NCBI GenBank assembly: GCA_048500095.1
Contig: JASNYQ010000001.1
Span: 1,182,696-1,246,695, forward strand
Length of the DNA: 64,000 bases
Source: Thermoanaerobaculia bacterium
GTDB lineage: Bacteria; Acidobacteriota; Thermoanaerobaculia; Multivoradales; JAGPDF01
Reading direction: 5' to 3'
This document shows positions 31,169 to 49,167 of the stretch, one piece after another. Every line of letters begins with the position of its first letter. The stretch's first letter is position 1. The translations under genes and the position numbers were made by a program. Below the pieces are notes generated by a model. It saw only the letters and a list, made by a program, of their open reading frames with translations. It was not told the origin of the DNA and searched no databases.

Positions 31169-31196
31169 CCGCGCCTCGGTCTCGTCGGGCCTGCAG

Positions 31197-31235
31197 ATCG
31201 CCTGGCACCTTCTTGCACCTTCTTGGCAGGGCTTC
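31197..31235. repeat. REP-like repeat copy (AGATCGCCTGGCACC) plus CACCTTCTTG x2 tandem
   Basis: Member of the dispersed family RGGTGCCAGGCGAYYTGCRGG, in reverse orientation. Confidence 0.7.
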
Positions 31236-31270
31236 GCGGCAGGTACACTGCCGCGGTCGGGAGGAGAGCC

Positions 31271-31969
31271 ATGAAGAGGATCGGCCTGATCGGCGGGATG
31301 ACGCCGGAGTCCACCATCGCGTACTACCGCGCCCTGATCCGCCTCGGCCGGAGCGTGGCGGCGGATCCCCTCGACAACCCGGTGATCCTGATCTACAGCG
31401 TCAAGCTCTCCGAGATCTTCCGGCTGCAGGAGGCCGGGCGGGACGACGAGGTGGTGGGGATCCTCGGCGACGCGTTCGATCGGCTGCGCGGCGCGGGGGC
31501 CGAGCTCGGGTCGCTGACCGCCAACACGCCGCACGTCTACTTCGACCGGTTGGCGGCGCGCGCCGGCATGCCGCTCGTCAGCATCCTGGACGCGACGTTC
31601 GAGCGGACCCGGGCGCTGGGGTGCCGCAAGGTGCTGCTGCTCGGCACGCGCACCACGATGGCCTCGCCGATGTACCCGCGGCGGATGGCGGCCGGCGACA
31701 TCCGGGTGATCGTCCCCGAAGAGGCGGAGCGGGCGTTCGTGAACCGGACGATCTACGAGGAGCTCTCGGTCGGCCTGACCACCCCGGAGGCGCGCCGGGC
31801 GTTCGTCGAGATCTGCGAGCGGCACGTGAGGGAGGACGGCGCCGACGGGGTGATCCTCGGCTGCACCGAGATTCCGCTGCTCCTCGAGCAGGGGGACGTC
31901 TCGGTGCCGATGATCGACACCACCCAGGTCCACGCCGAGGCGATCTTCGCCGCCGCGCGTGCAGGCTAG
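31271..31969 (+). CDS. aspartate/glutamate racemase family protein
   Basis: MKRIGLIGGMTPESTIAYY N-terminus and GCTEIPLLL C-terminal motif. Confidence 0.75.
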   Translation: MKRIGLIGGMTPESTIAYYRALIRLGRSVAADPLDNPVILIYSVKLSEIFRLQEAGRDDEVVGILGDAFDRLRGAGAELGSLTANTPHVYFDRLAARAGMPLVSILDATFERTRALGCRKVLLLGTRTTMASPMYPRRMAAGDIRVIVPEEAERAFVNRTIYEELSVGLTTPEARRAFVEICERHVREDGADGVILGCTEIPLLLEQGDVSVPMIDTTQVHAEAIFAAARAG

Positions 31970-32026
31970 CGGTCGCTCCGAAGGTGCCCCGAAGGGTGCC
32001 AGGCGACTTGTCGGGAGGGAGAGGCG

Positions 32027-32542
32027 ATGCCACGCTACGTCGCGTTCCTGCGCGGGGTGATGCCCACGAACCTGAAGATGGCCGACCTGCGCCGCGCCGC
32101 CGAGGAGGCCGGCGGTACGGCGGTCCGCACCCTGCTGGCGAGCGGCAACGTCGTCTTCGACGCGCCGTCGCGCTCCGAGGCCGCGGTCACGCGCGCCCTC
32201 GAGGCGGCGATCGCCGCGCGGAGCGGCCGCGCCTTCCGCGCCTTCGTGCGCCGCCAGGCCGACCTGGGGACACTCGTCGCGGCCGATCCCTTCGCCTCTC
32301 TCCCGCTCCCGGCCGCGGCGAAGCGGATCGTCACCTTCCTCGCCTCGCCCCCCGACCCGCCGCCGGCGCTCCCCGTCGAGCACGAAGGCGTCCGGGTCTT
32401 CGCGCTGAGCGGCCGCGAGGTCCTCACCGCCTACCTGCCGCACCCGCGCGGCCCCGTCTTCATGACCCTCCTCGAGCGCCTCTTCGGCACCGAGGCGACC
32501 ACCCGCACCTGGGACACCGTGCGCAAGTGCGCGGCGGGGTGA
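32027..32542 (+). CDS. DUF1697-family protein
   Basis: MPRYVAFLRGVMPTNLKMADLR N-terminal signature. Confidence 0.6.
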   Translation: MPRYVAFLRGVMPTNLKMADLRRAAEEAGGTAVRTLLASGNVVFDAPSRSEAAVTRALEAAIAARSGRAFRAFVRRQADLGTLVAADPFASLPLPAAAKRIVTFLASPPDPPPALPVEHEGVRVFALSGREVLTAYLPHPRGPVFMTLLERLFGTEATTRTWDTVRKCAAG

Positions 32543-32589
32543 GCGAGCCCCTCCGCCCTGCGCGCGAGGAGCCTGAGCGCGGGCCGCCA

Positions 32590-32690
32590 GCGGGTGCCCA
32601 GCGGGTGCCAGGCGACTTGCAGGACCCGACAGGTGCCAGGCGATTTGCAGTGACAGCGGCCCGAGACAGGTGCCAGGCGATCTGTGGCCG
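32590..32690. repeat. cluster of three direct REP-like copies (GGGTGCCAGGCGACTTGCAGG, AGGTGCCAGGCGATTTGCAG, AGGTGCCAGGCGATCTGTGG)
   Basis: Read directly. Spacers are irregular (~13-20 nt). Confidence 0.8.
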
Positions 32691-32779
32691 GCCCCGCGCG
32701 CTGGACGCCCCCCCGGTCGGGGCCGTAACCTCACCGGAAGGCCGTCGTTCGCAGGCGCCGAATCCCAGGAGATCGCACG

Positions 32780-33268
32780 ATGACCGGCAGAGCCCTCGTT
32801 CTCACCCTTCTCTTCGCCCCGCTCTCGCTCGCGGCAGCCCTCGGCGCGGAGGGCGAGCCGGTCGCGAGCGCCGACTTCACGCTCCGGAGGATCGCTCCGA
32901 GAGAGGCGTTCGCACCGTTGCGGTCCTTCGCCGGCGCGACGGAGATCGACCTGATCGATGCCGCGACCGTGCGCGTGCACGGCCCGGCGGCGGTCCTCGC
33001 CCGCGCGGGGACGGTAATCGAGCTCCTCGAGCTCCCCTCCGAGCCGGCGGGCGAGCCCGCACTGCGCGAGCTCGCCGACGGCACGCGGCTCGCGCGCGTC
33101 GCGCTCGGCGAGGTCCCCGCGCGGGAGGCGGTCACCGCCCTGCGCCAGCTGCGCGTCGGCGGCATCGCCGTCTTCGACGAGGGCGCCGCCCTCCTCCTCC
33201 ACGACACCGCACCGCAGATCGACGCCGCCCTCGCGCGCCTCGCCCGTCTCGCGCGCGAGCGGCCGTAG
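32780..33268 (+). CDS. secreted hypothetical protein
   Basis: Signal peptide MTGRALVLTLLFAPLSLAAALG. Confidence 0.45.
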   Translation: MTGRALVLTLLFAPLSLAAALGAEGEPVASADFTLRRIAPREAFAPLRSFAGATEIDLIDAATVRVHGPAAVLARAGTVIELLELPSEPAGEPALRELADGTRLARVALGEVPAREAVTALRQLRVGGIAVFDEGAALLLHDTAPQIDAALARLARLARERP

Positions 33269-33284
33269 CGCGGCGCGGACCAGG

Positions 33285-36200
33285 TCAGGGCGCGGCGGGC
33301 GGCTCCGTCGCCCCGAGGTCGAGCACCACCTCGCCGCCCGGCTCGAGCTGGAACGACGCGAGGGGGGCTCCGGGGAGGGGCTCGCCCCGCACGATTCCGC
33401 GCAGCGCTGGAAGCCACAGCTCTGGCGGGGTGCGGACGAGCACCCACGGCCCCGCGGCCAGGCCGTCCAGGCGGAGCCGGCCCTCGGGGAGCCCCGTCTG
33501 GAGCACGTTGACCAGACCGCCCAGGGGGAGGGTGGCCTCCGCCCCGACGAGGAAGAGCGGCCCCGTGAGCTGCGCCGCTCCGCCCAGGCCTTCGTCCGCA
33601 GTTCTCTGATCCCGAGGGCCGGTGCGCAGCACGAGCGAGCCGGTGGGCGGGAGCGCGAGGCGGTGCCGCCCGGCCCGCCCGGTGTCGACGCGGAAGCCGG
33701 CGATCGCGCGACCCGGGGCGTCGAGGAGCACGAGCGCCCGTCCCCGCGCCCCGCCACGCAGGCGGACGGTCGCGTTTCCCCTGGCATCGGTGACGAACCG
33801 GTGCCCATCGACCTCGCCGTCCGCGCGGAGGGCGAGGACCTGCCCCCCGATCGCCACGAGCGGAAGGCCCTCGGGGGAGACAAAGGCGAGGTCGAGCGGG
33901 CGCGACCTGCGCAGCACGAGGACGACCCCCGCGAGCCGTCCGTCCTCGGGCAGCTGCACGACCTGCGATTCGCTCTCCACCTCGCCCTTCTCGGCGCGCG
34001 CGGTGATCCGGTAACTCCCGCCGGCCACGCGGGTCAGGGCGAAGCTGCCGTCCTCGCGAATCGAGGCGGAAATCCCCGGATACGGCCTCTCGAACTCGCA
34101 CTCCGCCCCGGGCTCACAAGTGACCGCGAGAGCTCCGACGAAGCCCTCCCGCACCGGTTTCCCCTCCTCGTCCACCACCCGGCCCTCGATGCGCCCGCGC
34201 GGCGGCCGCACGATCACCTCCTCGTCCGGGTCCTCGAAGCGCACTTCCGGGACAACGGTGCTCTGCCCGCGGCGCGGATCGAACCACTCGACCAGGTACG
34301 TCCCCGGCCCGGGGAGCCGGATCGTGAACGAGCCGTCCGGGGCGGACGGGGTGAAGTTCGTCCCACCGCGCCTCCCCTCCACCTCGGGCCAGCTGACGCC
34401 CAGATCGAACGCGAGACTCTCCTCCTCCTCGCTCGCGCCCTCCTCCGGCTCGGCGTCGTCCACGATCCGGCCGTGGAAGAGGAGGGTCTCCGTGACCATG
34501 GGCACGGCGAACGGGAGGACGCGGGTCTCCCCCTCGGCGAGCTCGACCGTCCGGGCGCCCCCCGGCTCGAGGTGCCCGTTCCGGTCGAGCGCGAGCAGCT
34601 GGACGAGCCAACTCCCGGGTGGCAGGCCCTCGACCTCCACCGACCCGCCCGGGAGCAGCTGCACCTGGCGCCACGGCCCCTCCAGCAAGGCGTCGTCGCC
34701 GGCCAGCGTGAGATCGACGAGGAGCTCGGCCGCGCCGCTCGCCTCCCCGACCTCGGTCGCCACGATCAGCGTCGCCGCGAGCCGCTCGCGGAGCCGGCCG
34801 AGGTCGTGGCGCGCCCCGGGGGCGAGCTCGGGCACCGCGCGCGCCACCGGCGCTAGCGCCGCCGAGCGCGGCGCCACCACCGCCGCGTACGCCCCCGCAG
34901 CGAGGTCCTCGAACACCAGCCGCCCGTCCTCGCCGGTCTCGCCCCGCGCCATCGCCCGCGGGCGCTCGCCCGCGACGAGCCGCCGCAGCGTCGCGTCCAC
35001 CTGCTCCGCACCGACGAGCAGCACCGCCGCCCCCCGGACCGGCGCGCGGCCGCCAGTGTCGACGACCTGGAGCGCGATCGAGACCGCCGGCCGCAGCCGC
35101 CGCGCCGCGAGCTCGAGCCGCCCGCCGGGCGCCACCTTCGCGCCGGGCTCCACCTCCGGCGCGAAGCCCGGGAAGCGCGCCCGCAGGTCGAGGCAGCCGG
35201 CCGGCACCAGCGCCTCCGCGAGCCCCTCGGTGTCGATCGCGAGCGGCAGCTCGAAGGCGAACGCCGGCGCGCGGCCAGGGACGGCGCAGTCGCGCACCCC
35301 CCACCACCCCCCGGCGGGCCGCTTCCCGCCGGGAGGCGGCAGGAAGCGCGCCACCACCCGCCCGGCGGCGAGGAGCGGCACCTCCAGCGCCGGGCGCGCG
35401 CCCTCGTCACAGGCCGCGGGCGGCAGTGCGAAGACGAGCGACACCAGCCCTGGCGCGCGCGCGCGGAAGAGGGTCTCCGCCTCGCAGGGCACGGCGGCAC
35501 GGAGCTGGAGCGATCCCTCCTCAACCCCGGCCACGGCAGTGGACTCCACGACCTCCAGTCGCCCGCGATCGAGGCGCTCGAGCCACACCTCGCCCTCCAG
35601 CCCCAGCGCTCCCGTGACCTGAAGGAACAGCTGGGCTCCGCCGCCTTCGGGAATCGGCCCCAGCTCGGCGTCGAGCGACTCGGCCGGGAACGGCTCGACG
35701 TGCTCCTCGACGATCCGGTCGGCCTCTTCCACCTGCCCCCGCCTGCGCAGAGCCCCTGCGAGCGCACTCCAAGCCCGCACCGTCGCCGGCGCCCTTGGGC
35801 CGAGCGACGCCTTTGCATGCTCGAGAGCCTCCTCGAAGACGGTCTGAGCCCGCTCCAGGTTCTCGCCCTCCTTCTCGAACTCGGACTCCACGAAGTACTG
35901 GAAGCCGAGCAGGATCATCCCGTCCACGGCCTCCGGGCTCGTGTTTCCGTAGAAGGCCCGCCGCAGCTCGAGGCCTTCTTCGATCAGACGGCGCGACTCC
36001 GCGAGATCCTCGAAGTGGATCGCGACGCCGCTCAGCTCCTGCAACACGCGGATACGCTCCGGAGTCCGGGGAGCCTCGAGCTCGAGGAACTCCTTGGCCC
36101 GAAGCAGCAGCTCCCGGCGCTTCTCGAACGGCGCGCCGGTCTCCCGCGCCGCAACGAGGCTGGCCCGCGCGCGGAGCTGAGGATCGACTTCCGTGCTCAG

Positions 36201-36449
36201 GCACTCCTCCGCCACCAGCTGCGTCAGCTGCGGCAACCGCTCGGCGTCGCGCCCGCCGGGGTCGGGACCGCGGCCCAGTGCCGAGTCGATCTCCGCCAGC
36301 GCCCGGGCGCAGACCGCATTTCGCTCGTTCGCTGTCATCCGGGCATCAGATCCTCCGGAGGCAACGCTTCCGCTGACCGAAACGACAGAGGAAACCCATG
36401 CAATGACCAGAACAGAACGCCCTACCATGTGAGTGTCTCCCCTTCCCAT
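33285..36449 (-). CDS. large protein with N-terminal TPR-like helices and carboxypeptidase-regulatory-like (CarboxypepD_reg) beta domains
   Basis: GRVVDEEGKPVREGFV...DGSFALTRVAGGSYRI motif and repeats of it. Start is uncertain (36449 or 36428). Confidence 0.55.
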   Translation of the reverse strand: MGRGDTHMVGRSVLVIAWVSSVVSVSGSVASGGSDARMTANERNAVCARALAEIDSALGRGPDPGGRDAERLPQLTQLVAEECLSTEVDPQLRARASLVAARETGAPFEKRRELLLRAKEFLELEAPRTPERIRVLQELSGVAIHFEDLAESRRLIEEGLELRRAFYGNTSPEAVDGMILLGFQYFVESEFEKEGENLERAQTVFEEALEHAKASLGPRAPATVRAWSALAGALRRRGQVEEADRIVEEHVEPFPAESLDAELGPIPEGGGAQLFLQVTGALGLEGEVWLERLDRGRLEVVESTAVAGVEEGSLQLRAAVPCEAETLFRARAPGLVSLVFALPPAACDEGARPALEVPLLAAGRVVARFLPPPGGKRPAGGWWGVRDCAVPGRAPAFAFELPLAIDTEGLAEALVPAGCLDLRARFPGFAPEVEPGAKVAPGGRLELAARRLRPAVSIALQVVDTGGRAPVRGAAVLLVGAEQVDATLRRLVAGERPRAMARGETGEDGRLVFEDLAAGAYAAVVAPRSAALAPVARAVPELAPGARHDLGRLRERLAATLIVATEVGEASGAAELLVDLTLAGDDALLEGPWRQVQLLPGGSVEVEGLPPGSWLVQLLALDRNGHLEPGGARTVELAEGETRVLPFAVPMVTETLLFHGRIVDDAEPEEGASEEEESLAFDLGVSWPEVEGRRGGTNFTPSAPDGSFTIRLPGPGTYLVEWFDPRRGQSTVVPEVRFEDPDEEVIVRPPRGRIEGRVVDEEGKPVREGFVGALAVTCEPGAECEFERPYPGISASIREDGSFALTRVAGGSYRITARAEKGEVESESQVVQLPEDGRLAGVVLVLRRSRPLDLAFVSPEGLPLVAIGGQVLALRADGEVDGHRFVTDARGNATVRLRGGARGRALVLLDAPGRAIAGFRVDTGRAGRHRLALPPTGSLVLRTGPRDQRTADEGLGGAAQLTGPLFLVGAEATLPLGGLVNVLQTGLPEGRLRLDGLAAGPWVLVRTPPELWLPALRGIVRGEPLPGAPLASFQLEPGGEVVLDLGATEPPAAP

Positions 36450-36802
36450 CAGTAGAAAGGCATCGGATCGCTGCAGGCGGCCTCTACGGCGCTGGTCAGC
36501 TGGCCTGCAGTGGGTGGATCTCCAGGACCGGTGCTTGGGCTGGTGTCCTCCAATTGACCCGCCACGTGGAGCCCCTCATGAATTAGGAGCGTTGCAGCGA
36601 AGGACGTCGCGAAACCCGCGAACCGGTCGCAGAGGAAGATCACACGATCATGGTTGCAGCAGGTGGTCCAGGCCCCCGTGGTGGGATTCTCACACGGCTT
36701 GACGTTGCTGCCGTGGGTAACACCCTCGCCGCGCCGGAAGACAACATACCCATTCAAGATCTCAACGCCGCTCATGCCAAGCGGCGAGTTGTCGAACAGC
36801 AT
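36449..36802 (-). CDS. small HExxH-motif protein (putative metallopeptidase-like, 117 aa)
   Basis: Sits at the low-coordinate end of a longer spurious ORF. Lower local GC. LLIHEGLHVAG motif. Several Cys. Confidence 0.35.
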   Translation of the reverse strand: MLFDNSPLGMSGVEILNGYVVFRRGEGVTHGSNVKPCENPTTGAWTTCCNHDRVIFLCDRFAGFATSFAATLLIHEGLHVAGQLEDTSPSTGPGDPPTAGQLTSAVEAACSDPMPFY

Positions 36803-36820
36803 CGAGCTGCTCCGAGGTGC

Positions 36821-36900
36821 CATGCGACTTGCGACGGCATCGCGCTGCTCTTCAGGTGTTCTTCGGGTGCTCTTCAGGTGCCATGCGATCTGCGCCAGAT
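36821..36900. repeat. two REP-like copies (AGGTGCCATGCGACTTGCG, AGGTGCCATGCGATCTGCG) with GTGYTCTTCRG tandem between
   Basis: Read directly. Forward orientation, immediately upstream of the HUH transposase-like gene. Confidence 0.75.
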
Positions 36901-36928
36901 TCAAGGGGGCGATGGCGTCTTCGAAGGC

Positions 36929-37858
36929 ATGCCACGCCGAATCCGCTTCGTGCCCCCCGGAGGCGCGCTCGTCGAGGTGACCTGCCGGACTCTCCAAGCC
37001 CGCCTCCTCCTGCGCCCCTCGCCCCTCCTTCGCGACATCACCCTCGGCGTTCTCGGCCGCGCCCAGCGGCAGACCGGGGTTGCGATCCACGCCTTCGTCT
37101 TCCTCTCCACCCACCACCACCTCCTCGTCTCCGTCTCGGACGCCGCCCAGCTTGCTAGGTTCGTCGGCTACCTCAACTCCAACCTCGCCCGCGAGCTCGG
37201 CCGGATGCACGCCTGTCGGGAGAAGTTCTGGGGCCGCCGCTATCAGGCCATCCTGGTCAGCGACGAGGAGGCCTCCCAGGTCGAGCGCCTCCTCTACCTC
37301 GCCCGCCACGGCTGCAAGGAGGGCTTGGTCTCCGACCCTCTGGACTGGCCCGGAGCCACCAGCTGGCAGGCGATGCTGGACGGAAGGCCGCTCGAGGGCA
37401 CCTGGTTCGATCGCACGGCGGAGAGCTTGGCGACGCGGAAGGGGGTCGAGTTCGGGGCCCGGGACTTCGCCAGCGCGGAGACCGTGGTGCTCGCACCGCT
37501 CCCGGCCTGGGCGCACCTCGAGCCCGAAGTCCAGCGGGAGCGGCTGCGGGAGCTCCTCGATCTCGCCCGGGCCGAGGCCGCGGCGATGCGCGAGGAGACC
37601 GGGCGCGAGCCCCTGGGCCGCGAAGCCGTGACACGGCAGGACCCTCATGGATCGCCGCTGCGGAGGAAGAAAGGTCCGGCGCCGCTGGTGCATGCGGCGA
37701 GCCGCGAGGTGCGAAGAGCTTACCGGGAGGCGTACCGTCTCTTCACGGCCGCCTACCACCGCGCGGCCGAGGCCCTGCGGGCCGGGATCGCCACCGTCGT
37801 CTTTCCCGAGGGTTGCTTCCCTCCACCTGGGCCGTTCCAGCGGCCGGCAACGGCCTGA
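36929..37858 (+). CDS. IS200/RayT-like HUH (Y1) transposase homologue with ~170-aa C-terminal extension
   Basis: IHAFVFLSTHHHLLV (HUH). FWGRRYQAILV...LLYLARHG resembles the catalytic-Tyr region of TnpA_REP/COG1943. The first conserved YHV is degenerate (VEV). Confidence 0.5.
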   Translation: MPRRIRFVPPGGALVEVTCRTLQARLLLRPSPLLRDITLGVLGRAQRQTGVAIHAFVFLSTHHHLLVSVSDAAQLARFVGYLNSNLARELGRMHACREKFWGRRYQAILVSDEEASQVERLLYLARHGCKEGLVSDPLDWPGATSWQAMLDGRPLEGTWFDRTAESLATRKGVEFGARDFASAETVVLAPLPAWAHLEPEVQRERLRELLDLARAEAAAMREETGREPLGREAVTRQDPHGSPLRRKKGPAPLVHAASREVRRAYREAYRLFTAAYHRAAEALRAGIATVVFPEGCFPPPGPFQRPATA

Positions 37859-38050
37859 GAGCAGCTTCTACCGAACCGACTTCCTCCCATCCACCAGGGG
37901 CGACTTGCGCCCGAACGGTAACGCGCACAAGCAACGACACTCGGTAGACCGATCTGACGCGGCACGCTTTGGCCCCAATCTGGCCCTGTCTCCCGCATGT
38001 CCGGCCGCGGCGCAGGCTTCGGGGTCAACGCGCGACATGCGCAACCGAGC

Positions 38051-38170
38051 CAGGCCTGGAAATCGCATGGCACCCTTTCGGCACCCTCTCGGCACCCTCT
38101 CGGCGCCGGCTATCCGGACGTGTCGGAAGTCGCCTGGCACCCTCTCGGCGCACCCTGCTCGCGCCCGACT
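38051..38170. repeat. REP-like copies in reverse orientation (AATCGCATGGCACCC, AAGTCGCCTGGCACCC) with GGCACCCTYTC x3 tandem
   Basis: Read directly. Inverted relative to the 36821..36900 copies, so the pair flanks the transposase-like gene. Confidence 0.75.
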
Positions 38171-38265
38171 CCCACAACCACGAGCCCCGGCTCGTCACGG
38201 GAAACCACCGTCCCTTGACAGGAACGCCTTCAATGAGTGGCACCCTCTCCAGCAGGCGAGGATTT

Positions 38266-38556
38266 CTATCGTCTTAAGGCATTTCCAAGGCGAGAAAGCA
38301 GCCACGCCACGAAGCCGAGCGCCGCGCCAACCACCGAGGCCGCCAGGCCGCTGTACAAGACAGCTGCCGGGATCCACATCCATCTTGGGCCAGGCGGCGC
38401 CTCACTCCAGCAGAACAAGAACCACAAAAAGAATCCAGCGATAAAGCCAAGCGCGGGCACGACCCTGGGCAAAGACACCGGTTGCCGACGAAGCACCAAC
38501 CAGGCCAGTAGACTCGGAAGTCCAAGGGCCATCACCAGCAGAGAGAAGTCTCGCAT
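38266..38556 (-). CDS. small 3-TM membrane protein, candidate RHS-toxin immunity protein
   Basis: ATG overlaps the RHS stop (TGATG). 96 aa, low GC, hydrophobic. Confidence 0.5.
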   Translation of the reverse strand: MRDFSLLVMALGLPSLLAWLVLRRQPVSLPRVVPALGFIAGFFLWFLFCWSEAPPGPRWMWIPAAVLYSGLAASVVGAALGFVAWLLSRLGNALRR

Positions 38557-40518
38557 CAGAAGTCCACCCCTCTACGCAACCGTCTTATGAGTTGCCTCAT
38601 GAAGAACCGAGTCAGGCGCTCCATCTGCTTATCGCGCTCGGAGCAGGGATCATAAGTGTCCGTCCAGGTCGCTTGGGCTTCATAGTCGAAACCCCAGTGG
38701 CTGAAAAACTCTAGACGAAGGGCGTGGCCGCCCAAGAACCACTTCCGACCAGCGTGCGAGAACGTGTCCTGCAGCTCATGGAGGTGCTCACCAAATGCTC
38801 GAAGATCTGCCGCTTCTATCGCATCATAGAGGTCGCGTTCGACATCCACCCTTTCGCGGAAATGCCGCCAGCCCTGAAATGGGTTGAAGGGGTGCTTCCA
38901 GCCGTGGTCCATTCCTTCATTGTAGGAAGCAATCATGTCGGCCTGGAATGGCGAGAAGTCTTCCTGAAGCGCCCAAGTGTGCGTCTTGTGAAGATGAAGC
39001 TCGGTTCTATAGAGGCCTGATGGGTCCTTGGAATTGACTGGATCGTTGGCGGAATACTCAAACAGACCAGCTGATCCGCCTTCGAACCCAATCGGATCCT
39101 TCGCCGTCCACCTCCCCACCTCCGGGTCGTAGTCCCGCGCCCCGAACCGCACGAGCCCGGTCTGGGGGTCGTAGAGCCCTCCAGCGAACCCGAACGGCTG
39201 CCAGCCCGGATTCGAGTCGTAGGTGATCCGGCCCCAGGCGTCGTAGTCCAGCCGCTGCACGACCGCCCCGCTGGTGGCGTCCACCACCAGCCGCACGCTG
39301 CCCAGGTGGTCGGTGAGCATCCGGTAGGTCGTGCCGCCCGCTACCAGGTAGTCCGGTACGTGCCCCTGCGTCCCGTACACGAACGTCTTCGTGACCGCCC
39401 CCGTCCCGTCCGTCTCCGCCGCCGGCGCGAGGCCCCCGGCGTAGAGCCAGCCCTGCGTCAGCACCCCGTCGACCCGCTTGCCGATCCGCCGGCCCGAGGC
39501 GTCCACCAGGTACTCGATCGCGATCCCGTCTGGCAACTCCACCCCGAGCAGCGACCCGCGGATGTCGTAGGCGTACGAGGTGGTCTCCGGCCCCGCGCTC
39601 TCGGTCAGCCGCTCGCCGTTTGCCGTATAGGTGAAGGCCTTGGCGCCCGCCGTGAGCTGCCGGTCCTGCGCGTCGTAGGTCGCCACCCCCGAGCCCCAGA
39701 AGTCGCTCCAGCTCGTGCGGTTCCCGTTGCCGTCGTAGCCGTAGCTCGCGACCGGCACCCCGTCTCTCCGCACCTCCGTCAGCCACCCCCGCTCCGGGTG
39801 GTAGCCATACTCCCACACCGCGGTCACCCCGCCGATCGTCTCCGTCCGCCGCGTGATCCGGCCCCCCGCATCCCGGTCCAGGTCGTAGGCGTACGCCACC
39901 GACCCGCCGATCCGCGCCGTGAAGACGTCCAGCTCCCCGAACCCCGTCCGCGTCCGCTCCTCCGAGGTCACCCCCAGCGCCGTCGTCGCGAGCCACCCGC
40001 TCGCCGCCTCCCGGCCGAGGTCGAGCTCCCCGGCCCGCACCAGCAGGCCGTCGGGGTCGTACTCGTACGCCACAGGAGCGCCCCCCGCCACCGTCCGCCC
40101 GGCCAGCCGCAGGTCCGCGTCGTAGCTGAAGCCGATCGCGCCCGCGACCGGGCCCGACGTGGCGATCGAGGTGAGAAGCGGCCCCTCGTACCCGAAGGTG
40201 CTCTGGAAGCCGCCCGGCGCCGCGACCGTGCTCACCCGGCCGCTCGCCGCGTCGTAGGAGAGGTCCACCACCCCGGTCGGCAGCGTCACGAAGTCGAGAC
40301 GCCCGCTCGGCTCGTAGCTCGGGAGCAGCTCCTGACCGTCCGGCCGCGTCACCGCCGTCAGCTGCCCGTCGGCGTTGTAGGCATACCTCGTGTGCCGCGG
40401 CGCGAAGCCCGCCTCCGGAGGGGTGTACGTGTCCACCAGGTCGGCGGGTGTGTAGCCGAAGTCGTGCGGTGGACGCGTCGGTGGGGTGATCGAGGCGGTT
40501 CGAAAATCGCCCAGCACC
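38556..40518 (-). CDS. RHS/YD-repeat protein, 5'-truncated, with RHS core (DPxGL) and unassigned C-terminal toxin domain
   Basis: YD repeats (YAYDxxGrL) begin near aa 165 of the ORF. Core motif ARDYDPEVGRWTAKDPIGFEGGSAGLFEYSANDPVNSKDPSGL. The last ~150 aa are low GC and His-rich. The ORF's first ~160 aa are Arg/Ser junk, and GTG at 40518 is the likely start. Confidence 0.7.
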
Positions 40519-40569
40519 CTATCGGCGCCCTCTCGGTTCGGCGCAGTTAGGTCCTCTCTCGGGCGCCCT

Positions 40570-41265
40570 TCACGGGGGCCCCGGCTGCACTTGCAGGACC
40601 ATCTCGCGCAACTCGGCATCGGTCCGCGCGGTGCGTTCTTCCACGATGAGCTCAGGCTCGAGAAGCAGAACGGGGTCGTGGTAGCGGAACTCGCGGGGTG
40701 GTTCTCCCGGTTGATACTCCGGCAGCATGAAGTACGCCTTGTAGTCCATAGTCCGGCCTTCCAGAGTGACGCGCGAATCAAACGCGATAATCGCCTCCGG
40801 AGTCTGGACTTCTCGCCCGGCCTCTCGATGGTACTGGAAGATAGCCTCGACGGTGAGCTTGGCCGCTTCTTCGCCCTCCGCGTCGGGGGCAGTGTTCGTG
40901 ATCCAACGCGCCGCGAACGAGATGCCCAGCGGCTGCCCGTTGAGCGAGCGCGTCGAAACGGTGATCCCGATCGAATGGCTCGGAGCAACGGTGAGGACGT
41001 CGCTCAGGTTGGCCTTTCCGAACTCGCTCTTCGGAATGACCCGGACGTTCGAGATGTCGATCGTCAGAGGCGTTCCGGTCGCGGTCACCTGGCGCTCGTG
41101 GCGGGCGTAGACCTCCCGCACGAGAGCCTCAGCGCTCAGCGCCTCGCCTGAACCTGCTACCGGGCTCGGCACCTCGGCGAGCGAGGCGCCGACCAAAGAG
41201 AGCAGGGCGACAACCCCATGTGTGAGACCAACCCATAATCTCTGTCTCTCTCCACGCTTCGACAC
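40570..41265 (-). CDS. secreted hypothetical protein (232 aa)
   Basis: GTG start gives MSKRGERQRLWVGLTHGVVALLSLVGASLA signal peptide. Lower GC. Confidence 0.45.
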   Translation of the reverse strand: MSKRGERQRLWVGLTHGVVALLSLVGASLAEVPSPVAGSGEALSAEALVREVYARHERQVTATGTPLTIDISNVRVIPKSEFGKANLSDVLTVAPSHSIGITVSTRSLNGQPLGISFAARWITNTAPDAEGEEAAKLTVEAIFQYHREAGREVQTPEAIIAFDSRVTLEGRTMDYKAYFMLPEYQPGEPPREFRYHDPVLLLEPELIVEERTARTDAELREMVLQVQPGPP

Positions 41266-41289
41266 AACCCCTGACGACCACCGCTGCGA

Positions 41290-41460
41290 CTGAAGATCGC
41301 CTGGCACCCTTTCAGGCAGCACCTCCCCCTGTCGCCCCTCATGCCGGGGGCAAGGCGCACCCCTGAGGGTCTGTACCTGACCTTCACGACCGAATCCGGC
41401 CTGCAAATCGCCTGGCACCTTCTTAGCACCTTCTTACACCTTCTTACACCTTCTTAGCTC
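41290..41460. repeat. two REP-like copies (reverse orientation) and CACCTTCTTA x4 tandem
   Basis: GATCGCCTGGCACCC at ~41296 and AATCGCCTGGCACC at ~41408. Perfect 10-bp tandem at 41417..41456. Confidence 0.8.
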
Positions 41461-41467
41461 TCACAAA

Positions 41468-41980
41468 CTACTCAGGTCGGCTGCCGACCTCTCGCCCAGC
41501 ACTCTCCAGCCACTCGTTCGTCCTTCCCTTTCCCGCGTATCCCCTGAGGATCATCGGATCCGCATCAGCGGTCCGGACGGCAACGAGCGTCGGAAAGCCC
41601 TGGACGCTGAAGCGGCGCTGCAGCTCCTCAACCTCCTTCGCGTTTTGCCCCTCCTCGAACTCGCGATCGACTACGCGAACCGCGACAAACCTGGCATTGA
41701 CCAACTCAGAGGTCTTCCCATTTCGGAACACCTCCCTCTCGAGCTGCGCGCAGGGTCCACACCAGTCCGCCGTGAACCAGAAGAGAAGCGGCTTCCCCGA
41801 ATCCGCCTGCCCCTCCATAGCAGCGACTGGCTCCTGCCACCTGACAAGGTCCGGGGCTCTCGACGGGTTTCGGTACTCGAGAACCCCACTCATCACACGT
41901 CCAAACAGAAGCAGGCCGGCCAGCACCAGCATCCATTTCGGGACCGCCCGGCTCGAACCCGCGACCTCAGCGCTGCGCAT
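41468..41980 (-). CDS. membrane-anchored thioredoxin-like thiol:disulfide oxidoreductase
   Basis: WCGPC active site. N-terminal TM anchor. Confidence 0.7.
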   Translation of the reverse strand: MRSAEVAGSSRAVPKWMLVLAGLLLFGRVMSGVLEYRNPSRAPDLVRWQEPVAAMEGQADSGKPLLFWFTADWCGPCAQLEREVFRNGKTSELVNARFVAVRVVDREFEEGQNAKEVEELQRRFSVQGFPTLVAVRTADADPMILRGYAGKGRTNEWLESAGREVGSRPE

Positions 41981-42686
41981 AGGACAGCTCGCGTCGGTTG
42001 ATCAGGCAAATGGCACCCACAAGGCAGAGGGTGATGGTAGAGAAAAAGGACAGCACCGAATAGAGCGAGAGAGAGCCTACGCCCAGTGTCTCGCCAAGAT
42101 CGAGCATCGGGCAGAAGAAGCGCACTCCCTCCTCCCCCATGCGCGACCCAACCGGCCAACGATGTGACGCACCAAGGCCACGCAGCAATGAACACCCCGC
42201 CCAGGCAACGATCCACAGCACCCAATCACCCTGCTCGCTTACGACAGTTGAAACAAGCACAAGCACGGCAGCCACTGCAATCGCGATCAGCGCTCCATTG
42301 CCCAGCGCGAGGGCGAGCGCTCCGGCGGATGGCTGTGACCCAACCGTCATGAGGACGACCGCGCTCGTCAACACCCCGACGCTGTACAGCGCAGCGGCAA
42401 GGACTCCTGTCCCGAGCCACCTCCCCAGGACATAGCTGGCGCGGCGCACTGGTCGGGTGAAGATCAGGAGGAGAGCTCCTGTCCGGGCGTCCTGACCGAT
42501 TACGCCCGCACCGACGACAAGAACGAAGAGAGCACCGAACCCACCGTGCTGAAGGCGCGCCAGACCATGCTCTGGCGCGATCAGAACCCAGCCCCACTGG
42601 GCCACAATCACCGCGAGTGCCAGTGCCATGCGAAAGGGCGCGACCAGGCGCTCGCGAACGAAGGCGCGTGCGAATGTGGCGGTCAT
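41967..42686 (-). CDS. ABC-2 type transporter permease
   Basis: 6 TM helices. Overlaps the ATPase stop. Confidence 0.6.
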   Translation of the reverse strand: MTATFARAFVRERLVAPFRMALALAVIVAQWGWVLIAPEHGLARLQHGGFGALFVLVVGAGVIGQDARTGALLLIFTRPVRRASYVLGRWLGTGVLAAALYSVGVLTSAVVLMTVGSQPSAGALALALGNGALIAIAVAAVLVLVSTVVSEQGDWVLWIVAWAGCSLLRGLGASHRWPVGSRMGEEGVRFFCPMLDLGETLGVGSLSLYSVLSFFSTITLCLVGAICLINRRELSYAQR

Positions 42687-43690
42687 GCCTTCTCTCTGTC
42701 GGATCGGCTCTCGTCAAACAACCACTCTAGCCGGGGGGCCTCCGCCTGCGCCGCCAAGATCCGCACTCCAGCCTCGTGAAGGGCGGCGAGCAAGGCAGCA
42801 CGGTCGTTCGCCGCCTCGACAAGGAAGCGCGCACCAGCTGAGTCGCTGCTTTCTAAACGGACATTCACTCTGGACGCGATCTCGCTGAGGCGCTCCGGCG
42901 CCGGCCGCTCGGAATCGGACGAGTGTGACCACTCAACTCGGATTACTCCGGGCCCTTCCGAACGCAATGCGGTGTCGAAGAGCGACTCGAGGCGGCCACT
43001 TCGAAGAAATGCTACCCGATCGCAGATCCGTTCAACTTCCTCGAGGCGATGCGAGTTCATGACCAGTGTGGTGCCCCTGGCCTTCAGATGGAGCAGACAC
43101 TCGCGCATTGCCATGACGCCAGCGGGGTCCACGCCCGATGTGAATTCGTCGAGGAACAGGATGTCAGGATCGGGAAGGAGCGCCTGCGCGATCAAGAGGC
43201 GCTGTTGCATACCCTTCGAGAAGTGCGCCACTCTTCTCCTTACGGCTGCTTCGCTCAATCCTGCAATCCCAATGACTCTCGTGATGTTTGCGGCCACTTC
43301 TTCCCGCGGCAGGCCAGAGAGCTTGTGGTGCCACTCCAGGAAGCGCCACCCTGTCGTCCAGCGATCGAACTGGAAGCGCTCGGGGACGTAGCCGACCCGC
43401 CGCAGCACACGAAGGTCACTCGGGGCAAAGCCGCCAATTCGGACCTCGCCTTCGTCCGGACGAAGCAACCCGAGCAGGCAGCCCATGAGGGTTGTCTTTC
43501 CGGCGCCGTTCGCACCAATGACACCCATTGCTTCTCCGGGACGAACCGTCAACGTCACGCCGTCGAGCGCACGGCGCCGAGGATGTCCGAAACTCTTCGA
43601 GAGGCCGCTGGCAGTAACCCCCATTGGCTCGGGCCGCCGACCGCCGTCCACTACGACAGGGTCGGGATTCGTCGCTTGATGAACAGACAT
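42683..43690 (-). CDS. ABC transporter ATP-binding protein
   Basis: GANGAGKTT Walker A, FSKGMQQRL signature, ILFLDEFTSGVD Walker B. Start chosen at MSVHQ. Confidence 0.8.
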   Translation of the reverse strand: MSVHQATNPDPVVVDGGRRPEPMGVTASGLSKSFGHPRRRALDGVTLTVRPGEAMGVIGANGAGKTTLMGCLLGLLRPDEGEVRIGGFAPSDLRVLRRVGYVPERFQFDRWTTGWRFLEWHHKLSGLPREEVAANITRVIGIAGLSEAAVRRRVAHFSKGMQQRLLIAQALLPDPDILFLDEFTSGVDPAGVMAMRECLLHLKARGTTLVMNSHRLEEVERICDRVAFLRSGRLESLFDTALRSEGPGVIRVEWSHSSDSERPAPERLSEIASRVNVRLESSDSAGARFLVEAANDRAALLAALHEAGVRILAAQAEAPRLEWLFDESRSDREKA

Positions 43691-43817
43691 TATGGTTAGG
43701 AGAGAAGGTCCAGGGATCCCATCATCAGACCACCCCCCTCGCACCGACCTCCCTCGGCGCGAGGGGGGTTCGCCCGCAGAGCACGCCCTCAGGGGCCATG
43801 CCGATCTCTACGGCATC

Positions 43818-44456
43818 CTAGTAGCAACGTCCCTGGCCCGGCCCACCCCCGTTACAGGAGGTACCGCAGTCAAGCCACCCCCCACCTCCGAACACACAAC
43901 CCCAGTAGCAGGCGGCGTAGGCGCCGCACTCCCAGATGTTCTCGGGGTTCGGGCCCACCGAATCAACGGAATAGTGTACCAAGGCTAGCTGTACTTGCAG
44001 GATGGACACCATCTCTTCGCTCGTCGTGAGGCCGACAAGACCCGGAAGCACGCTCGATCGCAGCTGAGTCAACAGCGTCCCGTTCATCTGACTGAAGGCT
44101 CTCTCAACTACGTGCGGTACCGCCTGGCTGCCTCCCGCGAGTTCGAGAACGAGGATCGGCGGGAATCTCGAAGTCATAAGACCATGCTGGTAGCTTACTG
44201 AGATCGAAGTTGCGCCGGGATCATCGCTCGGGACAACCAGGAACTCGATCACCTCGTCGCCGAGTCGGTAGGCTGAGAAGTAGTGCTCCTCGCTGCCAAC
44301 CGTGATCGTCGTCGAAAACTCGACACCGTTGTACTCTCCGAAGAACTGCTTCGCCGACGCCTGGCATTTCCCCTGAGCCAACGCCTCCGCGGCCCCCCAG
44401 AAGAGGAGACAAGACACCAGAGCACACATGACAACCGAACCAGTGAGTCTCTTCAT
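43818..44456 (-). CDS. secreted protein with Cys/Gly-rich C-terminal tail
   Basis: Sec signal peptide. ~50% GC. C-terminus WECGAYAACYWGCVFGGGGWLDCGTSCNGGGPGQGRCY with 7 Cys. Confidence 0.5.
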   Translation of the reverse strand: MKRLTGSVVMCALVSCLLFWGAAEALAQGKCQASAKQFFGEYNGVEFSTTITVGSEEHYFSAYRLGDEVIEFLVVPSDDPGATSISVSYQHGLMTSRFPPILVLELAGGSQAVPHVVERAFSQMNGTLLTQLRSSVLPGLVGLTTSEEMVSILQVQLALVHYSVDSVGPNPENIWECGAYAACYWGCVFGGGGWLDCGTSCNGGGPGQGRCY

Positions 44457-44824
44457 AGTTCATCCTCCGTTCATGCTGCGGTTAAGAGCTGAGCCGGGTT
44501 GAGAGGCGCGGATCTCAGCTCGTGATTGAGTGGAGCAAGCTGGCGGTTCTTCTCGACTTCATCGGCACTCGTTCCAGTCTGAGCAGAGAGACCAACCACT
44601 CGGACGACAGGCCCCCTTGGTCCTGCAGAGTCTCGGTTTCGCCCAGAAGAAGGCACCCGAATCTGTCGCAAGCGCTTCGCTCAGCAGGCTCACTTCGATC
44701 TCCTCTTCTGTGATCCATTCCACTTGCAAGGTTCAACCCGGCTGCTATCGTCCATGTCATCGAGGACTCACTGGGTCTACTTACTAGACCCGCGAAATGG
44801 CCGGAGGGTGGACAGGGGGGAGGC

Positions 44825-45382
44825 ATGTGCCAGAACGGATCGGCTTCGAGCGAGCAGCCCTTCGTCGAAGGGCGCGAGGACGCGGAGGAACTCGCGCGAC
44901 TCCTTGCAGAGGTGCAGCCGGCGCTCCTGCGCCTCGGAGCGCGGAGGGGCCTCGGCCGGGAGGACTGCGAGGACGCGCTGCAGGAGACGCTGATGCGTTT
45001 CCATCAGGCGCAGGGGAGGGTGGCCAACCCGGTGGCTTGGCTGCACACCGTGATGCACCGGGAGTGCCTGCGTCTTCTCGGCCGCCGGCAGTTCGAACGG
45101 GAGGAGACGGCCGAGCGGGTGCTCGAGATGCGCGCGCGCGTGGACAGCGGCTTCGCGCAGCGGCTCCACCGCGTCGACCTCGGCCGGCTCCTCGGCCGCC
45201 TCCGCGCGCGCGAGCGCCGCCTGTTGCTGCTCTTCTACTTCGCGGGGGTGGAGGCGCGGGAGGTGGCGCGGCGGATCGGGTGCCGCACCTCCAGCCTCAA
45301 GCGGCTGCTCGCGCGGGCTCGCGAGGCGGCGCGGTCGGCGCTGCGCGAGACGGGATCGGTCCGCTCGCCGACCGAGGAGTGA
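44825..45382 (+). CDS. ECF-family RNA polymerase sigma factor
   Basis: Region 2 (EDALQETLMRFHQA) and a region 4 HTH (LLLLFYFAGVEAREVARRIGCRTSSLKRLLARAR). Confidence 0.75.
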   Translation: MCQNGSASSEQPFVEGREDAEELARLLAEVQPALLRLGARRGLGREDCEDALQETLMRFHQAQGRVANPVAWLHTVMHRECLRLLGRRQFEREETAERVLEMRARVDSGFAQRLHRVDLGRLLGRLRARERRLLLLFYFAGVEAREVARRIGCRTSSLKRLLARAREAARSALRETGSVRSPTEE

Positions 45383-45497
45383 GGTCCGGCGCCGCCAGAG
45401 GCTGGCCGCCAGGGGCGGCGGCCGCTACGTGCTGCGGCGTTCGTAGCGGCCGGACCCGTGCCGGCCAGCCTTCAGGGAGAACCGCGAGAGGGCCGGT

Positions 45498-47168
<1,671 letters not shown>

Positions 47169-47402
47169 GACGATCCCTGCCCTTTCAGAACGGCACGCTA
47201 GGCCGCCCGGTTTCCCCGCGCACGTGCCCCCCGCCGGGGTTCGCGGGCGCCCCGGCTCCGCGGGGCCCGGCGCTCCGCGGCCGTCCCGCGGGGAGGCTCC
47301 CCGCCCACGCCCCCGGATCCCGCGGGCCCCTCCGCTGACGCGCCACCCGCTGCGCCGGCGCGCCCGCGAACCCCGCCCCCGGCGAACACCCGCTCCACCG
47401 CC

Positions 47403-49007
47403 TCAGCTCGCGGGGCGAGTCTGATCGAGACGCGCCAGCGCGCGGTCGATCCGCGCGAGCACCCGCTCGCGGCCGAGAATGGAAAGGAGGTCGAAGAGGC
47501 CGAAGCCGACCGCCTTGCCGGAGACGGCCACGCGCACCGCGTGGACGATGGCGCCGAGGCCGAGACCGCGCGCGGCGACGAAGTCGCCGCAGAGCGCCTC
47601 GAGCTCAGGCGCCGCGAAGCCCGGGGCGGCGGCGAGCGCGGCGCGCAGCTCGGCGAGGAGCGCCGGCGCTCCGGCCGCATGGCGCAGCCGCTTGTCGAAC
47701 GCCTTCTCGTCGCAGGCGAGCGCCTCGTCGGCGACGAAGAGCTCCTCGTAGTCGAGGATGTCGCCGGCCACCTTGAGCCGCTCGGCCGCCGCCTCCACCA
47801 CCGCGCGCACGGTCGCGCGCTCCGCATCGGACGGCGGCGAGGCGATCCAGCCGGCGCGCTCGAGGAACGGGAGCGCGAGCGCGGTGCGCTCCTCGGCGGG
47901 GAGCGCCTGCATGTAGCGCTCCTGGAACGAGAGGAGCTTGGCCGGGTCGAAGCTCGCCGGGGCGCGGTTCACGCGGTCGAGGGTGAAGACGGCGATCCGC
48001 TCCTCGGCGGCGAGGATCTCGGTCTTGTCGTCGAGCGACCAGCCGAGCAGCAGCAGGTAGTTCAGGATCGCGTCCGGCAGGAAGCCGCTCTCGCGGTAGA
48101 AGTCGACGATCACCGGGTTGAAGGTGTCGGCCGCGACATGGTGGCCGAGCCGCTCGGCGATCCGCCGCCCGCGCTCGAAGAGGCCGGCGAACTCCGGGTT
48201 CTTCAGGTACTTGTCGAGCTTGCGCTTGGAGAGCTTGACGCGGCTGCCGGGCTCGGCGACCACCGGCAGGTGCGCGAGCACCGGCGGCTCGGCGCCGAGC
48301 GCGCGCCAGATGAAGACCTGCCGCGGGGTGTTGGAGAGGTGCTCCTCGGCGCGGATCACGTGGCTGATCCGCATCTCGATGTCGTCGACCACGCTCGCGA
48401 GGTGGTAGAGGCAGCTGCCGTCGGCGCGCTGGACGACGTGGTCGGCCTCGGCCGCCCAGTCGGTCACCACCTCGCCCCGCACCAGGTCGTCGAGCCGGCA
48501 CTGGCCCTCGCGCGGCATCTTCAGGCGCACGACGAAGCCGCGCCCCTCGGCCTCGAAGCGCGCCCGGTCGGCCTCCGTCTCGGCCGCCCAGCGGCGGCTC
48601 GCCACGTACGGCTCCTTCGCCGCCTCGGCCACCCCCCGCTCGGCCTGGATCTCCTCGGGGCGCGCGTAGTCGCGGTAGGCGAAGCCCCCGGCCAGCAGCC
48701 GCTCGACCGCCGCCTGGTAGCGCGGCAGGCGCTCGGACTGGTAGTAGGGGCCGTACTCGCCGCCGACGTCCGGCCCCTCGTCCCAGTCGAGGCCGAGCCA
48801 GCGGAAGCCGTCGAGGATCGGGGCGAGGGCCTCGGCGACGTTGCGCTGGGCGTCGGTGTCGTCGACCCGCAGCACGAAGCGCCCGCCGTGGCGGCGGGCG
48901 AAGAGCCAGTTGAAGAGGGCGGTGCGGACACCGCCGATGTGCAGGTAGCCGGTCGGCGAGGGGGCGAACCGGACCCGCACCGGGGCGGCCGGAGTGGGAT
49001 CGCTCAT
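47403..49007 (-). CDS. gltX: glutamyl-tRNA synthetase
   Basis: [18 protein letters not shown] and KLSKR motifs. Confidence 0.9.
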
Positions 49008-49167
49008 CGCCGGCGATCCTATCGGCTGGCCGCGCGCTCCGTCGAACCGGGGTCGAACCCGGCGGTCGAACCCGCGGCAGGGGCGGGGCTATACTCTCTC
49101 CAGAGCACGCTCGACGGCGCCCGTCGCCGGCCCATCCCGACCCGCACCGCGCCCGGAGGAGGCCGCC

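Follow-up and report, generated by a model that had tools for sequence, protein, structure and literature searches.

The window analysed here comprises 64,000 nucleotides (nt) of contig JASNYQ010000001.1 from a Thermoanaerobaculia bacterium (assembly GCA_048500095.1) and contains an accessory region at positions ~35,493-44,688. This region is probably a chromosomal hypervariable locus, which was built piecemeal by cassette replacement, rather than a single mobile island. According to this proposal, the locus lies between the conserved pair of glnS and an extracytoplasmic function (ECF) sigma factor gene and the conserved core of a gene for a secreted protein with a CarboxypepD_reg domain, and it would consist of five units. 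The first is an operon encoding the secreted protein Cys212, an ATP-binding cassette (ABC) exporter of the ABC-2 type and a membrane-anchored thioredoxin, which would have replaced the secreted-protein genes that are found at this position in all relatives. The second is sec232, a member of the one gene family common to the window strain and its relatives, and the third an orphan Rhs fragment with a host-like core and a tip of low guanine-cytosine (GC) content, which is followed by a small open reading frame (ORF) for a putative membrane protein. The fourth unit is a presumably resident RayT-like gene that has, on either side, inverted copies of an intergenic repeat occurring throughout the lineage; the fifth would be an ORF with an HExxH motif together with an N-terminus containing tetratricopeptide repeats (TPR) and a signal peptide, which was swapped in before the CarboxypepD_reg core. 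The exchange may have occurred by recombination in the conserved flanks, i.e., the ECF promoter, the sec-family genes and the CarboxypepD_reg core, and in the short repeat heads.

What could be shown for the locus is its base composition, the position of its borders, its mosaic structure, the protein domains encoded in it and its variation between strains. An initial annotation, made from the letters of the window, had described a single lower-GC island with horizontally acquired competition or defence cargo. It was correct in that the region is accessory, has a partly foreign composition and carries competition-type cargo, and it was wrong with respect to the unity of the region, its borders and the status of the RayT-like gene.

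Base composition and borders of the locus

The window is a chromosome segment with a GC content of 73% and carries housekeeping genes on both sides of the locus (RsgA, glutamate racemase, GlnRS, GluRS and MsrA). Between positions 36400 and 44800, the GC content is 64.7% compared to 74.3% for the remaining window, in which the lowest 1-kb window has 69.6% (mean 74.4%, standard deviation 2.4). If the region is defined by comparison with relatives (35493-44688), its GC content is 65.4%, whereas 300 random host segments of the same size all reach at least 72.3%; the dinucleotide signature distance of the region is 95.8, and the maximum obtained with 300 host samples of this size is 68.6. At a resolution of 200 nt, the trough is patchy, with ~61% at 36.3-36.9 kb, 52-58% at 38.4-39.1 kb and 54-68% at 40.6-44.8 kb, and two segments inside it, 37.3-37.8 kb and 39.1-40.5 kb, have host-like values of 70-77%. 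The same pattern is seen for the GC content at synonymous sites (GC3), which is 0.94-0.98 in 14 host reference genes and 0.65-0.76 in eight genes of the region, namely those for the HExxH protein, the 96-aa ORF, the Rhs tip, sec232, the thioredoxin-like protein, the ABC permease, the ABC ATPase and Cys212. The Rhs core (0.94) and the RayT gene (0.88) are host-like. Apart from these two, the region thus has the atypical base composition and codon usage of a genomic island. In the sliding-window GC and codon-usage analysis that had been proposed as a check, the profile is non-uniform and the trough lies beyond chance. Since GC content and codon usage both reveal a patchy trough, the drop to 50-62% GC over ~8 kb that had been noted is real, but its depth and uniformity were overstated, as such values are only reached at 38.4-39.1 kb and in parts of 40.6-44.8 kb.

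Comparison with relatives places the left border at ~35,493, within the CarboxypepD_reg-domain gene, and nucleotide homology to a sister strain is lost at 35492. The right border is located at ~44,670-44,689, 136 bp upstream of the ECF sigma start codon, and on this side the BLAST alignments of six relatives and of the sister strain break off at 44677-44689. The left edge had originally been set to 36.4 kb; however, the composition shift already begins at ~35.5 kb inside the flanking gene. Short direct repeats, which had been suggested for ~36.4 and ~44.8 kb, are absent: the longest word shared by the two region ends has 10 nt, which equals the mean of shuffled sequences. The borders contain no tRNA gene, the sole tRNA gene of the window being located at 25.5 kb and thus 11 kb away, and no integrase domain was detected in Pfam and NCBIfam scans of the region proteins. 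The locus hence has neither an integrase combined with a tRNA or att site and flanking direct repeats, nor does it form one contiguous block that is present or absent as a unit among the relatives. A plasmid collection gave only a 74-nt generic ABC match at the DNA level and no match to Cys212 at the protein level. PADLOC models found nothing past generic ABC-ATPase similarity and no known anti-phage defence family among the region proteins; of the predicted cargo, the Rhs tip and the Cys212 operon are plausible competition genes, while the defence part found no counterpart.

Table 1. Features of the variable locus and its two flanks; positions refer to the window.
Feature	Position	Strand	Evidence or comparison
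Conserved CarboxypepD_reg core, codons ~313-1054, left flank	33285..35492	-	97.9% nt identity to contig L100 down to 35492
Variable N-terminal extension with signal peptide and TPR	35493..36449	-	TPR_12 match, E=3e-11
117-aa ORF with HEGLH motif (HExxH)	36449..36802	-	sequence read directly; GC3 0.73
Two repeat heads (ARRTCGCMTGGCACC) left of RayT, facing away	36816..36891	-	heads at 36816 and 36877
RayT-like HUH/Y1 transposase gene, 309 aa	36929..37858	+	Pfam Y1_Tnp 30.6 bits (cut-off 23)
Two repeat heads with tandem units of GCACC plus 6 nt, right of RayT	38060..38159	+	heads at 38060 and 38127
Degenerate repeat copy right of RayT	38238-38249		
96-aa ORF with three hydrophobic segments, candidate immunity gene	38266..38556	-	directly downstream of the tip, start and stop adjacent
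Rhs C-terminal toxin domain (tip), 153 aa after DPSGL	38556..39017	-	GC 55%, GC3 0.65
Rhs core fragment, 5'-truncated	39018..40503	-	TEN_YD-shell match, positions 413-866 of 909 only
Repeat head abutting the truncated Rhs 5' end	40504..40536	+	same junction in contig L081; glutaredoxin-like gene in the sister strain
sec232, secreted 232-aa protein of a lineage-specific family	40570..41268	-	80% aa and 88% nt identity to 233-aa protein of the sister strain
Two repeat heads between sec232 and the thioredoxin-like gene, left edge of swapped cassette	41294..41460	+	
Membrane-anchored thioredoxin-like protein, 170 aa	41468..41980	-	Thioredoxin_2, Thioredoxin_7 and DsbH-like matches; GC3 0.75
ABC-2 type permease, 239 aa	41967..42686	-	ABC2_membrane_2, E=9e-9; GC3 0.70
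ABC ATPase, DrrA-like	42683..43744	-	ABC_tran, E=9e-27; GC3 0.68
Cys212, secreted, near-invariant 37-aa Cys/Gly-rich C-terminus	43818..44456	-	alignment
Window-specific leader region	44457..44688	.	alignment A3, BLAST breakpoints
GTG of divergent-gene remnant at the ECF promoter	44691-44693	-	
Conserved ECF sigma promoter region and ECF sigma gene, right flank	44689..45382	+	Sigma70_r2 and r4_2 matches

Exchange of separate units between close strains

All contigs used for comparison are short metagenome pieces of 1-7 kb. Cys212 has a database record, and ten independent assemblies, which include the NCBI metagenome-assembled genome (MAG) GCA_023384535.1, several sequencing runs and one JGI metagenome, carry the same arrangement as the window with 99.8-100% identity; it is therefore no assembly artefact. 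The sister strain has flanks that are 97.7-97.9% identical to the window at the nucleotide level. Its ECF sigma factor, 99% identical to that of the window, was found on 18 contigs, with 97.7% nt identity from 44689 through GlnRS. The left flank is represented by contig L100 from the same sample series, which is 97.9% identical over 32132-35492, diverges past this point and carries another N-terminus of 83 codons preceded by a redoxin gene in the position of the HExxH ORF. Homology returns at the repeat head at 36816 and runs on into the 5' end of the RayT gene with its repeats. Upstream of the ECF gene, the sister strain encodes a 469-aa protein, in which a sec-family N-terminus is joined to a C-terminus rich in Cys, two more sec paralogues, the 233-aa orthologue of sec232 and a glutaredoxin-like protein, and its contigs also hold 30 nt identical to the Rhs 5' end. 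As this gene set differs from that of the window, the Cys212/ABC/thioredoxin operon is absent from a near-identical strain and fills the slot of other genes.

Instead of one inserted island, three separate sub-blocks thus differ between the two strains: the genes for Cys212, the ABC exporter and the thioredoxin take the place of three other secreted-protein genes, the repeat at 40504 that of the glutaredoxin-like gene, and the HExxH ORF with the TPR N-terminus that of the redoxin gene with the other N-terminus. Between these sub-blocks, the two strains have DNA in common, namely sec232, a 30-nt stretch at the Rhs 5' end, and the 5' end of the RayT gene together with its repeats. A single horizontally acquired island of competition or defence cargo, inserted between the CarboxypepD_reg and ECF sigma genes, would account for the overall GC trough and the atypical dinucleotide signature, and the Cys212 operon, the Rhs tip and the HExxH ORF are indeed missing from the sister strain; however, such an origin is very unlikely given the host-like segments within the trough, the retained interior pieces between three differences, the intragenic left border, the lack of an integrase, a bordering tRNA gene and a direct repeat, and the lack of a defence family.

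The accessory nature of the region, which had been proposed initially, was confirmed when presence and absence were checked in the relatives, as the region is strain-variable. On contigs of six relatives, the ECF sigma factor is 72-80% and GlnRS 88-98% identical at the amino acid level, and GlnRS is always encoded beside the sigma factor gene. Left of the break, these relatives carry a gene for a secreted protein of 252-260 aa; in one case, the secreted protein is a 360-aa version whose C-terminus is rich in Cys, and it is accompanied by a redoxin gene and the gene for another secreted protein. A scan of one genome per species with GlnRS gave a best match of only 70% identity among the species representatives, which lacked synteny and hence provides no presence/absence information; an exact look-up of the GlnRS sequence returned no record, and a scan of metagenome contigs with the flanking gene returned only contig L081.

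At the left border, the exchange affects the coding sequence itself. The closest homologue of the CarboxypepD_reg-domain protein, encoded on L100, is 96% identical and only 825 aa long, and an 830-aa form from a distant relative (63% aa identity) aligns from residue 288 of the window protein. The TPR extension is missing from both forms (contigs L100 and L113), and 825-830 aa is the common length; the gene of the distant relative, which is known from long contigs, stands in another genomic context, and its use is limited to showing that ~830 aa is usual. The first ~290-312 codons and the HExxH ORF are therefore regarded as a swapped cassette, and the 1054-aa protein appears to be a chimera. 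Its GC3 changes accordingly along the gene, from 0.73-0.91 in the N-terminal extension to 0.94-0.98 at codons ~351-700 and 0.88-0.92 onward to the 3' end. The stop codon of the HExxH ORF overlaps the ATG of the downstream gene (TGATG). This ORF has no match in Pfam (to E<=5) or NCBIfam and no meaningful match in the PDB, the two PDB hits (a designed repeat protein and one with E=0.41) being spurious, and a 128-aa gene upstream of the distant relative's flanking gene is unrelated to it.

The low GC content might also have arisen without any foreign DNA, by relaxed selection or biased repair in fast-evolving, lineage-specific secreted-protein genes at an odd locus. In fact, the variable genes of the relatives at this locus also have a GC3 of 0.70-0.86 beside a value of 0.98-0.99 for GlnRS, the sec family is lineage-specific, and lineage-specific repeats lie within the low-GC part. 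This explanation is nevertheless highly improbable: the difference between a GC3 of 0.65-0.76 and one of 0.94-0.98 is not explicable by protein composition, the Cys212 operon is missing from a strain with 97.7% identity in the flanks, and the sole homologues of this operon occur in a different lineage. Several points weigh against piecemeal cassette replacement as well. No relative spans the locus on a single contig, and the picture of the sister strain is therefore stitched together from two contig sets of the same sample series; the ancestral state was reconstructed by parsimony alone, and contig L081 may be chimeric. The lineage-specific repeats within the low-GC DNA suggest that it is no recent import but has circulated within the lineage. 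That repeats coincide with junctions, as described below, could be due to chance, since repeats fill four of the ~9 intergenic gaps here, and the functional roles are predictions, both structure predictions being poor (pLDDT 39-40).

Hypervariable plasticity loci such as those for O-antigen and capsule likewise have fixed borders in conserved genes or promoters, gene sets that differ between close strains and an atypical composition, and they lack an integrase or att site. In contrast to these, the locus described here is small (9 kb), comprises at least five units with separate histories, has one border inside a coding sequence, which results in a chimeric protein, and carries short dispersed repeats at the unit junctions. 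It is thus an ordinary case of plasticity in a bacterial genome, of a general kind that is well known, although a few of its parts are unusual. The locus illustrates how a compositional "island" can mislead: several small cassette swaps at one fixed slot of the chromosome add up to the signal here, and one such swap remodels the N-terminus of a flanking gene. Three leads emerged in this poorly studied high-GC lineage, whose contigs are labelled Thermoanaerobaculia or Anaerolineales, and they do not overturn the current understanding: a very rare family of secreted proteins with a near-invariant Cys/Gly-rich C-terminus is linked, in two lineages, to genes for an ABC exporter and an ECF sigma factor; the Rhs toxin domain belongs to an uncharacterised family; and a RayT-associated, non-palindromic repeat is found at recombination junctions.

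Two further observations concern the contigs. L081 (861-1543), a 1.5-kb contig, combines a 270-nt piece of the TPR region (90% nt identity), three repeat heads and the Rhs 5' end without sec232 with 850 nt of unrelated sequence of 48% GC; it is a chimera of the assembly or else comes from a relative with a rearrangement. Of the ten contigs from the window strain, eight (L084-L091, window 44535-45150) stop 80-700 nt right of Cys212 and reach at most 2.4 kb to the left, which is consistent with assembly-graph forks from co-occurring strains that differ at the right border.

A RayT-like gene bracketed by intergenic repeats

The RayT-like protein scores 39.7 bits against the NCBIfam model REP_Tyr_transpos and thus stays under the cut-off of 80. 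Its gene has a dinucleotide signature in the host range. The associated repeat consists of a 15-nt head (ARRTCGCMTGGCACC) followed by 2-4 tandem units of 10-11 nt, each composed of GCACC and six bases, which are uniform within a copy and differ between copies, also between the orthologous copies of the window and L100. The head occurs 15 times in the window compared to 0.2 expected occurrences; all copies are intergenic and located at 31.2-51.2 kb (31195-51192; e.g., 38060-38103, 41405-41460 and 51024-51060), within ~13 kb around RayT. Two inverted copies flank the RayT gene on each side, other heads are located between housekeeping genes at sites that are conserved in relatives.

A REPtron is a RAYT gene flanked by inverted repetitive extragenic palindromic (REP) sequences (PMC2817692, PMC5581495). 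The arrangement found here resembles a REPtron, as a host-like gene of the Y1/HUH transposase type is bracketed by an inverted, dispersed intergenic repeat and occupies the same position in the sister strain. It differs, however, in the repeat, which is non-palindromic and forms no hairpin, and in the protein, which lies under the RayT cut-off and has a C-terminal extension of ~150 aa. Single-strand folding of the repeats gave z-scores of -1.5 to +1.5 and was no better than that of shuffled sequences, and no match was found in Rfam. A reading of the repeats as sigma-54 promoters, suggested by a GG-N10-GC spacing, was dropped, as the majority of the copies are oriented against the genes next to them. 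According to PMC5581495, RAYTs are domesticated single-copy genes with vertical inheritance; together with the host-like composition of the gene, this argues that the RayT gene and the repeats are resident features and not cargo. They had been listed among the cargo of the island, which does not agree with their composition, with the repeats found outside the region and with their identical place in the sister strain.

A repeat head is found at one edge of all three differences to the sister strain and of both differences to L081, a contig in which sec232 is missing between two heads. One breakpoint coincides with the 3' end of a head; in alignment A2, the homology between the window and L100 stops exactly past the head at 36816. 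This association between repeats and junctions is suggestive; coincidence would also be possible. It was considered whether the RayT-like enzyme mobilises modules bounded by the repeats, so that the mosaic would result from cut-and-paste by a transposase between heads and not from ordinary recombination. The inverted heads around RayT, the clustering of all heads of the window around this gene and their position at the edges of the differences fit such a mechanism; however, it is quite unlikely, since Y1 transposases normally need a hairpin, RAYTs are vertically inherited according to the source cited above, repeats also stand between housekeeping genes at positions kept in relatives, and the other swap edges lie in conserved genes or a promoter, as predicted for homologous recombination.

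A second motif was noticed outside the locus. It is GC-rich, comprises ~26-31 nt (GGCCGCCAGGGGCGGCGGCCGCTACG) and is located at ~45403-45428 between the ECF and GlnRS genes and, inverted, at 50851-50881 near MsrA; it also occurs in relatives, and it may represent another family of repeats or a hairpin that resembles a terminator.

Cargo genes and the ECF promoter region

The gene content listed by the initial annotation was largely recovered: Pfam and NCBIfam support the RayT-like, Rhs, thioredoxin-like, ABC ATPase and ABC-2 permease genes, and the HExxH, 232-aa secreted and Cys-rich 212-aa proteins are encoded by real ORFs, for which no family match was obtained. Cys212 belongs to a family with only four clusters among 5.8 billion sequences. 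Its C-terminus (CGxYAACYWGCVxGGGGWLxCGxxCNGGGxGxGRCY) is conserved, while the remainder is ~30% identical. Neither Cys212 nor sec232 has a match in Pfam (to E<=5) or NCBIfam or a meaningful match among solved structures, and AlphaFold2 run on a 4-sequence alignment of Cys212 gave an unusable model (pLDDT 39). The distant homologues of Cys212 come from a lineage with 67% GC and show the same gene order, with a divergent ECF-like sigma factor (32% identical), the Cys-rich protein, an ABC ATPase and an ABC-2 permease. In the window, the thioredoxin-like gene overlaps the permease gene by 14 nt. The ABC ATPase matches the drrA subfamily with E=4.5e-48, which is under the cut-off, and its start codon is uncertain, as other gene callers predict 281-341 aa. 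An ATPase and an ABC-2 permease that are translationally coupled downstream of a gene for a secreted Cys-rich protein are reminiscent of ABC-2/DrrAB-like and lantibiotic-protection-type exporters. Unlike in these systems, modification enzymes and a recognised bacteriocin family are missing, the partner has 212 aa and a Sec signal, and a divergent ECF sigma factor is linked to the operon in two lineages.

The relatives of the window strain carry non-homologous Cys-rich secreted proteins and non-homologous thiol oxidoreductases in the Cys212 slot. The Cys212 operon may make or tolerate a disulfide-rich secreted factor under control of the ECF sigma factor, and the ABC exporter would then serve for export or self-protection. 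That the slot encodes ECF-controlled, disulfide-rich secreted factors with a dedicated oxidoreductase can be proposed tentatively. A far-reaching version of this idea is an undescribed diversifying system, in which an ECF-driven, swappable slot for disulfide-rich effectors (sec-family proteins with polymorphic Cys-rich C-termini, here Cys212) is combined with an own oxidoreductase for each effector, here also an ABC exporter, and with RayT-recognised, non-palindromic repeats as cassette joints; it is considered unlikely.

The secreted proteins that the relatives encode left of the break are all distant homologues of sec232, which is 24-59% identical to the tandem paralogues beside the ECF sigma gene in all relatives. 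As a separate observation, the ECF-adjacent secreted proteins of relatives (L103:3240-4649, L097:1733-2815, L094:4518-5276 and L099:17-799) share a conserved N-terminal part of ~250 aa, whereas the C-terminus is either lacking or, in the forms of 469 and 360 aa, taken from a set of unrelated domains rich in Cys, and tandem sec paralogues follow. This combination of a conserved N-terminus and a varied C-terminus resembles polymorphic toxins.

The ECF sigma factor has 185 aa, contains only sigma-70 regions 2 and 4 (PF04542 and PF08281) and has a GC3 of 0.91; its orthologues are 72-99% identical at the amino acid level and invariably encoded beside GlnRS. The promoter region is conserved over ~135 nt in the alignment with relatives. 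The start codon of the relatives' divergent gene is located exactly at the break, and the window keeps the ribosome-binding site and ~7 recognisable codons of this gene, with its ATG replaced by GTG. A 44-codon ORF (VSLLSEALATDSGAFFWAKPRLCRTKGACRPSGWSLCSDWNECR; 44559-44693, minus strand) starts from this GTG with the ancestral ribosome-binding site and could encode a real small Cys-containing peptide or be a mere remnant. The promoter region also contains a perfect palindrome (GGGTCTA-CTTAC-TAGACCC, 44773-44791), which is kept in the aligned contigs of four relatives and in the sister strain and is a candidate operator.

The Rhs gene contains a partial YD-repeat shell and a core (Rhs_assc_core, TIGR03696, E=5e-20; RHS_repeat, E=6e-13), whose DPSGL motif, read directly, corresponds to the DPxGL terminus of Rhs cores. 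The core has 72% GC and a GC3 of 0.94 (39.05-40.46 kb). The ORF starts inside the shell, its sole candidate start codon, a GTG at 40517, lies inside the repeat, and no N-terminal delivery region (PAAR, DUF6531 or similar) was detected. The tip has 127 homologues (E<=1e-3), which form the C-terminal ends of proteins that vary widely in length; among these are full-length Rhs proteins of 855-1884 aa with RHS repeats, and DUF6531 was present in four of the seven examined. The homologues of the tip carry only weak DUF6765 matches. Sequence searches of solved structures with the tip gave nothing meaningful, and AlphaFold2 on the single sequence gave an unusable model (pLDDT 40). No family was found for the 96-aa ORF (GC3 0.68) in Pfam (to E<=5) or NCBIfam; judged from its position, it is a candidate immunity gene, and the tip and this ORF may form a toxin/immunity pair.

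The combination of a host-like core and a low-GC tip in a 5'-truncated gene fits the pattern of C-terminal displacement, in which dissociated tips keep a core fragment (PMC2935791), and the gene is best regarded as an orphan. Orphan rhs modules are also described in PMC3150448 and PMC7043789, and the modules known from these three sources share with the window a host-like core ending in DPxGL, a low-GC toxin domain, a small ORF and the lack of an N-terminal delivery part. In contrast to them, the window has no full-length rhs gene upstream, a dispersed repeat directly adjoins the truncated 5' end, and the toxin domain is uncharacterised.

Two minor observations concern the genome as a whole and the remainder of the window. 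The taxonomic labels are in conflict, since the MAG with the locus is labelled Anaerolineales and the closest homologues of the flanking gene are labelled Thermoanaerobaculia or Acidobacteria. Two adjacent giant paralogous genes on the plus strand (11500-17091 and 17088-22769) encode proteins of 1863 and 1893 aa with PA14 and dockerin domains, and their GC content of 70-72% is a little under that of their neighbours.

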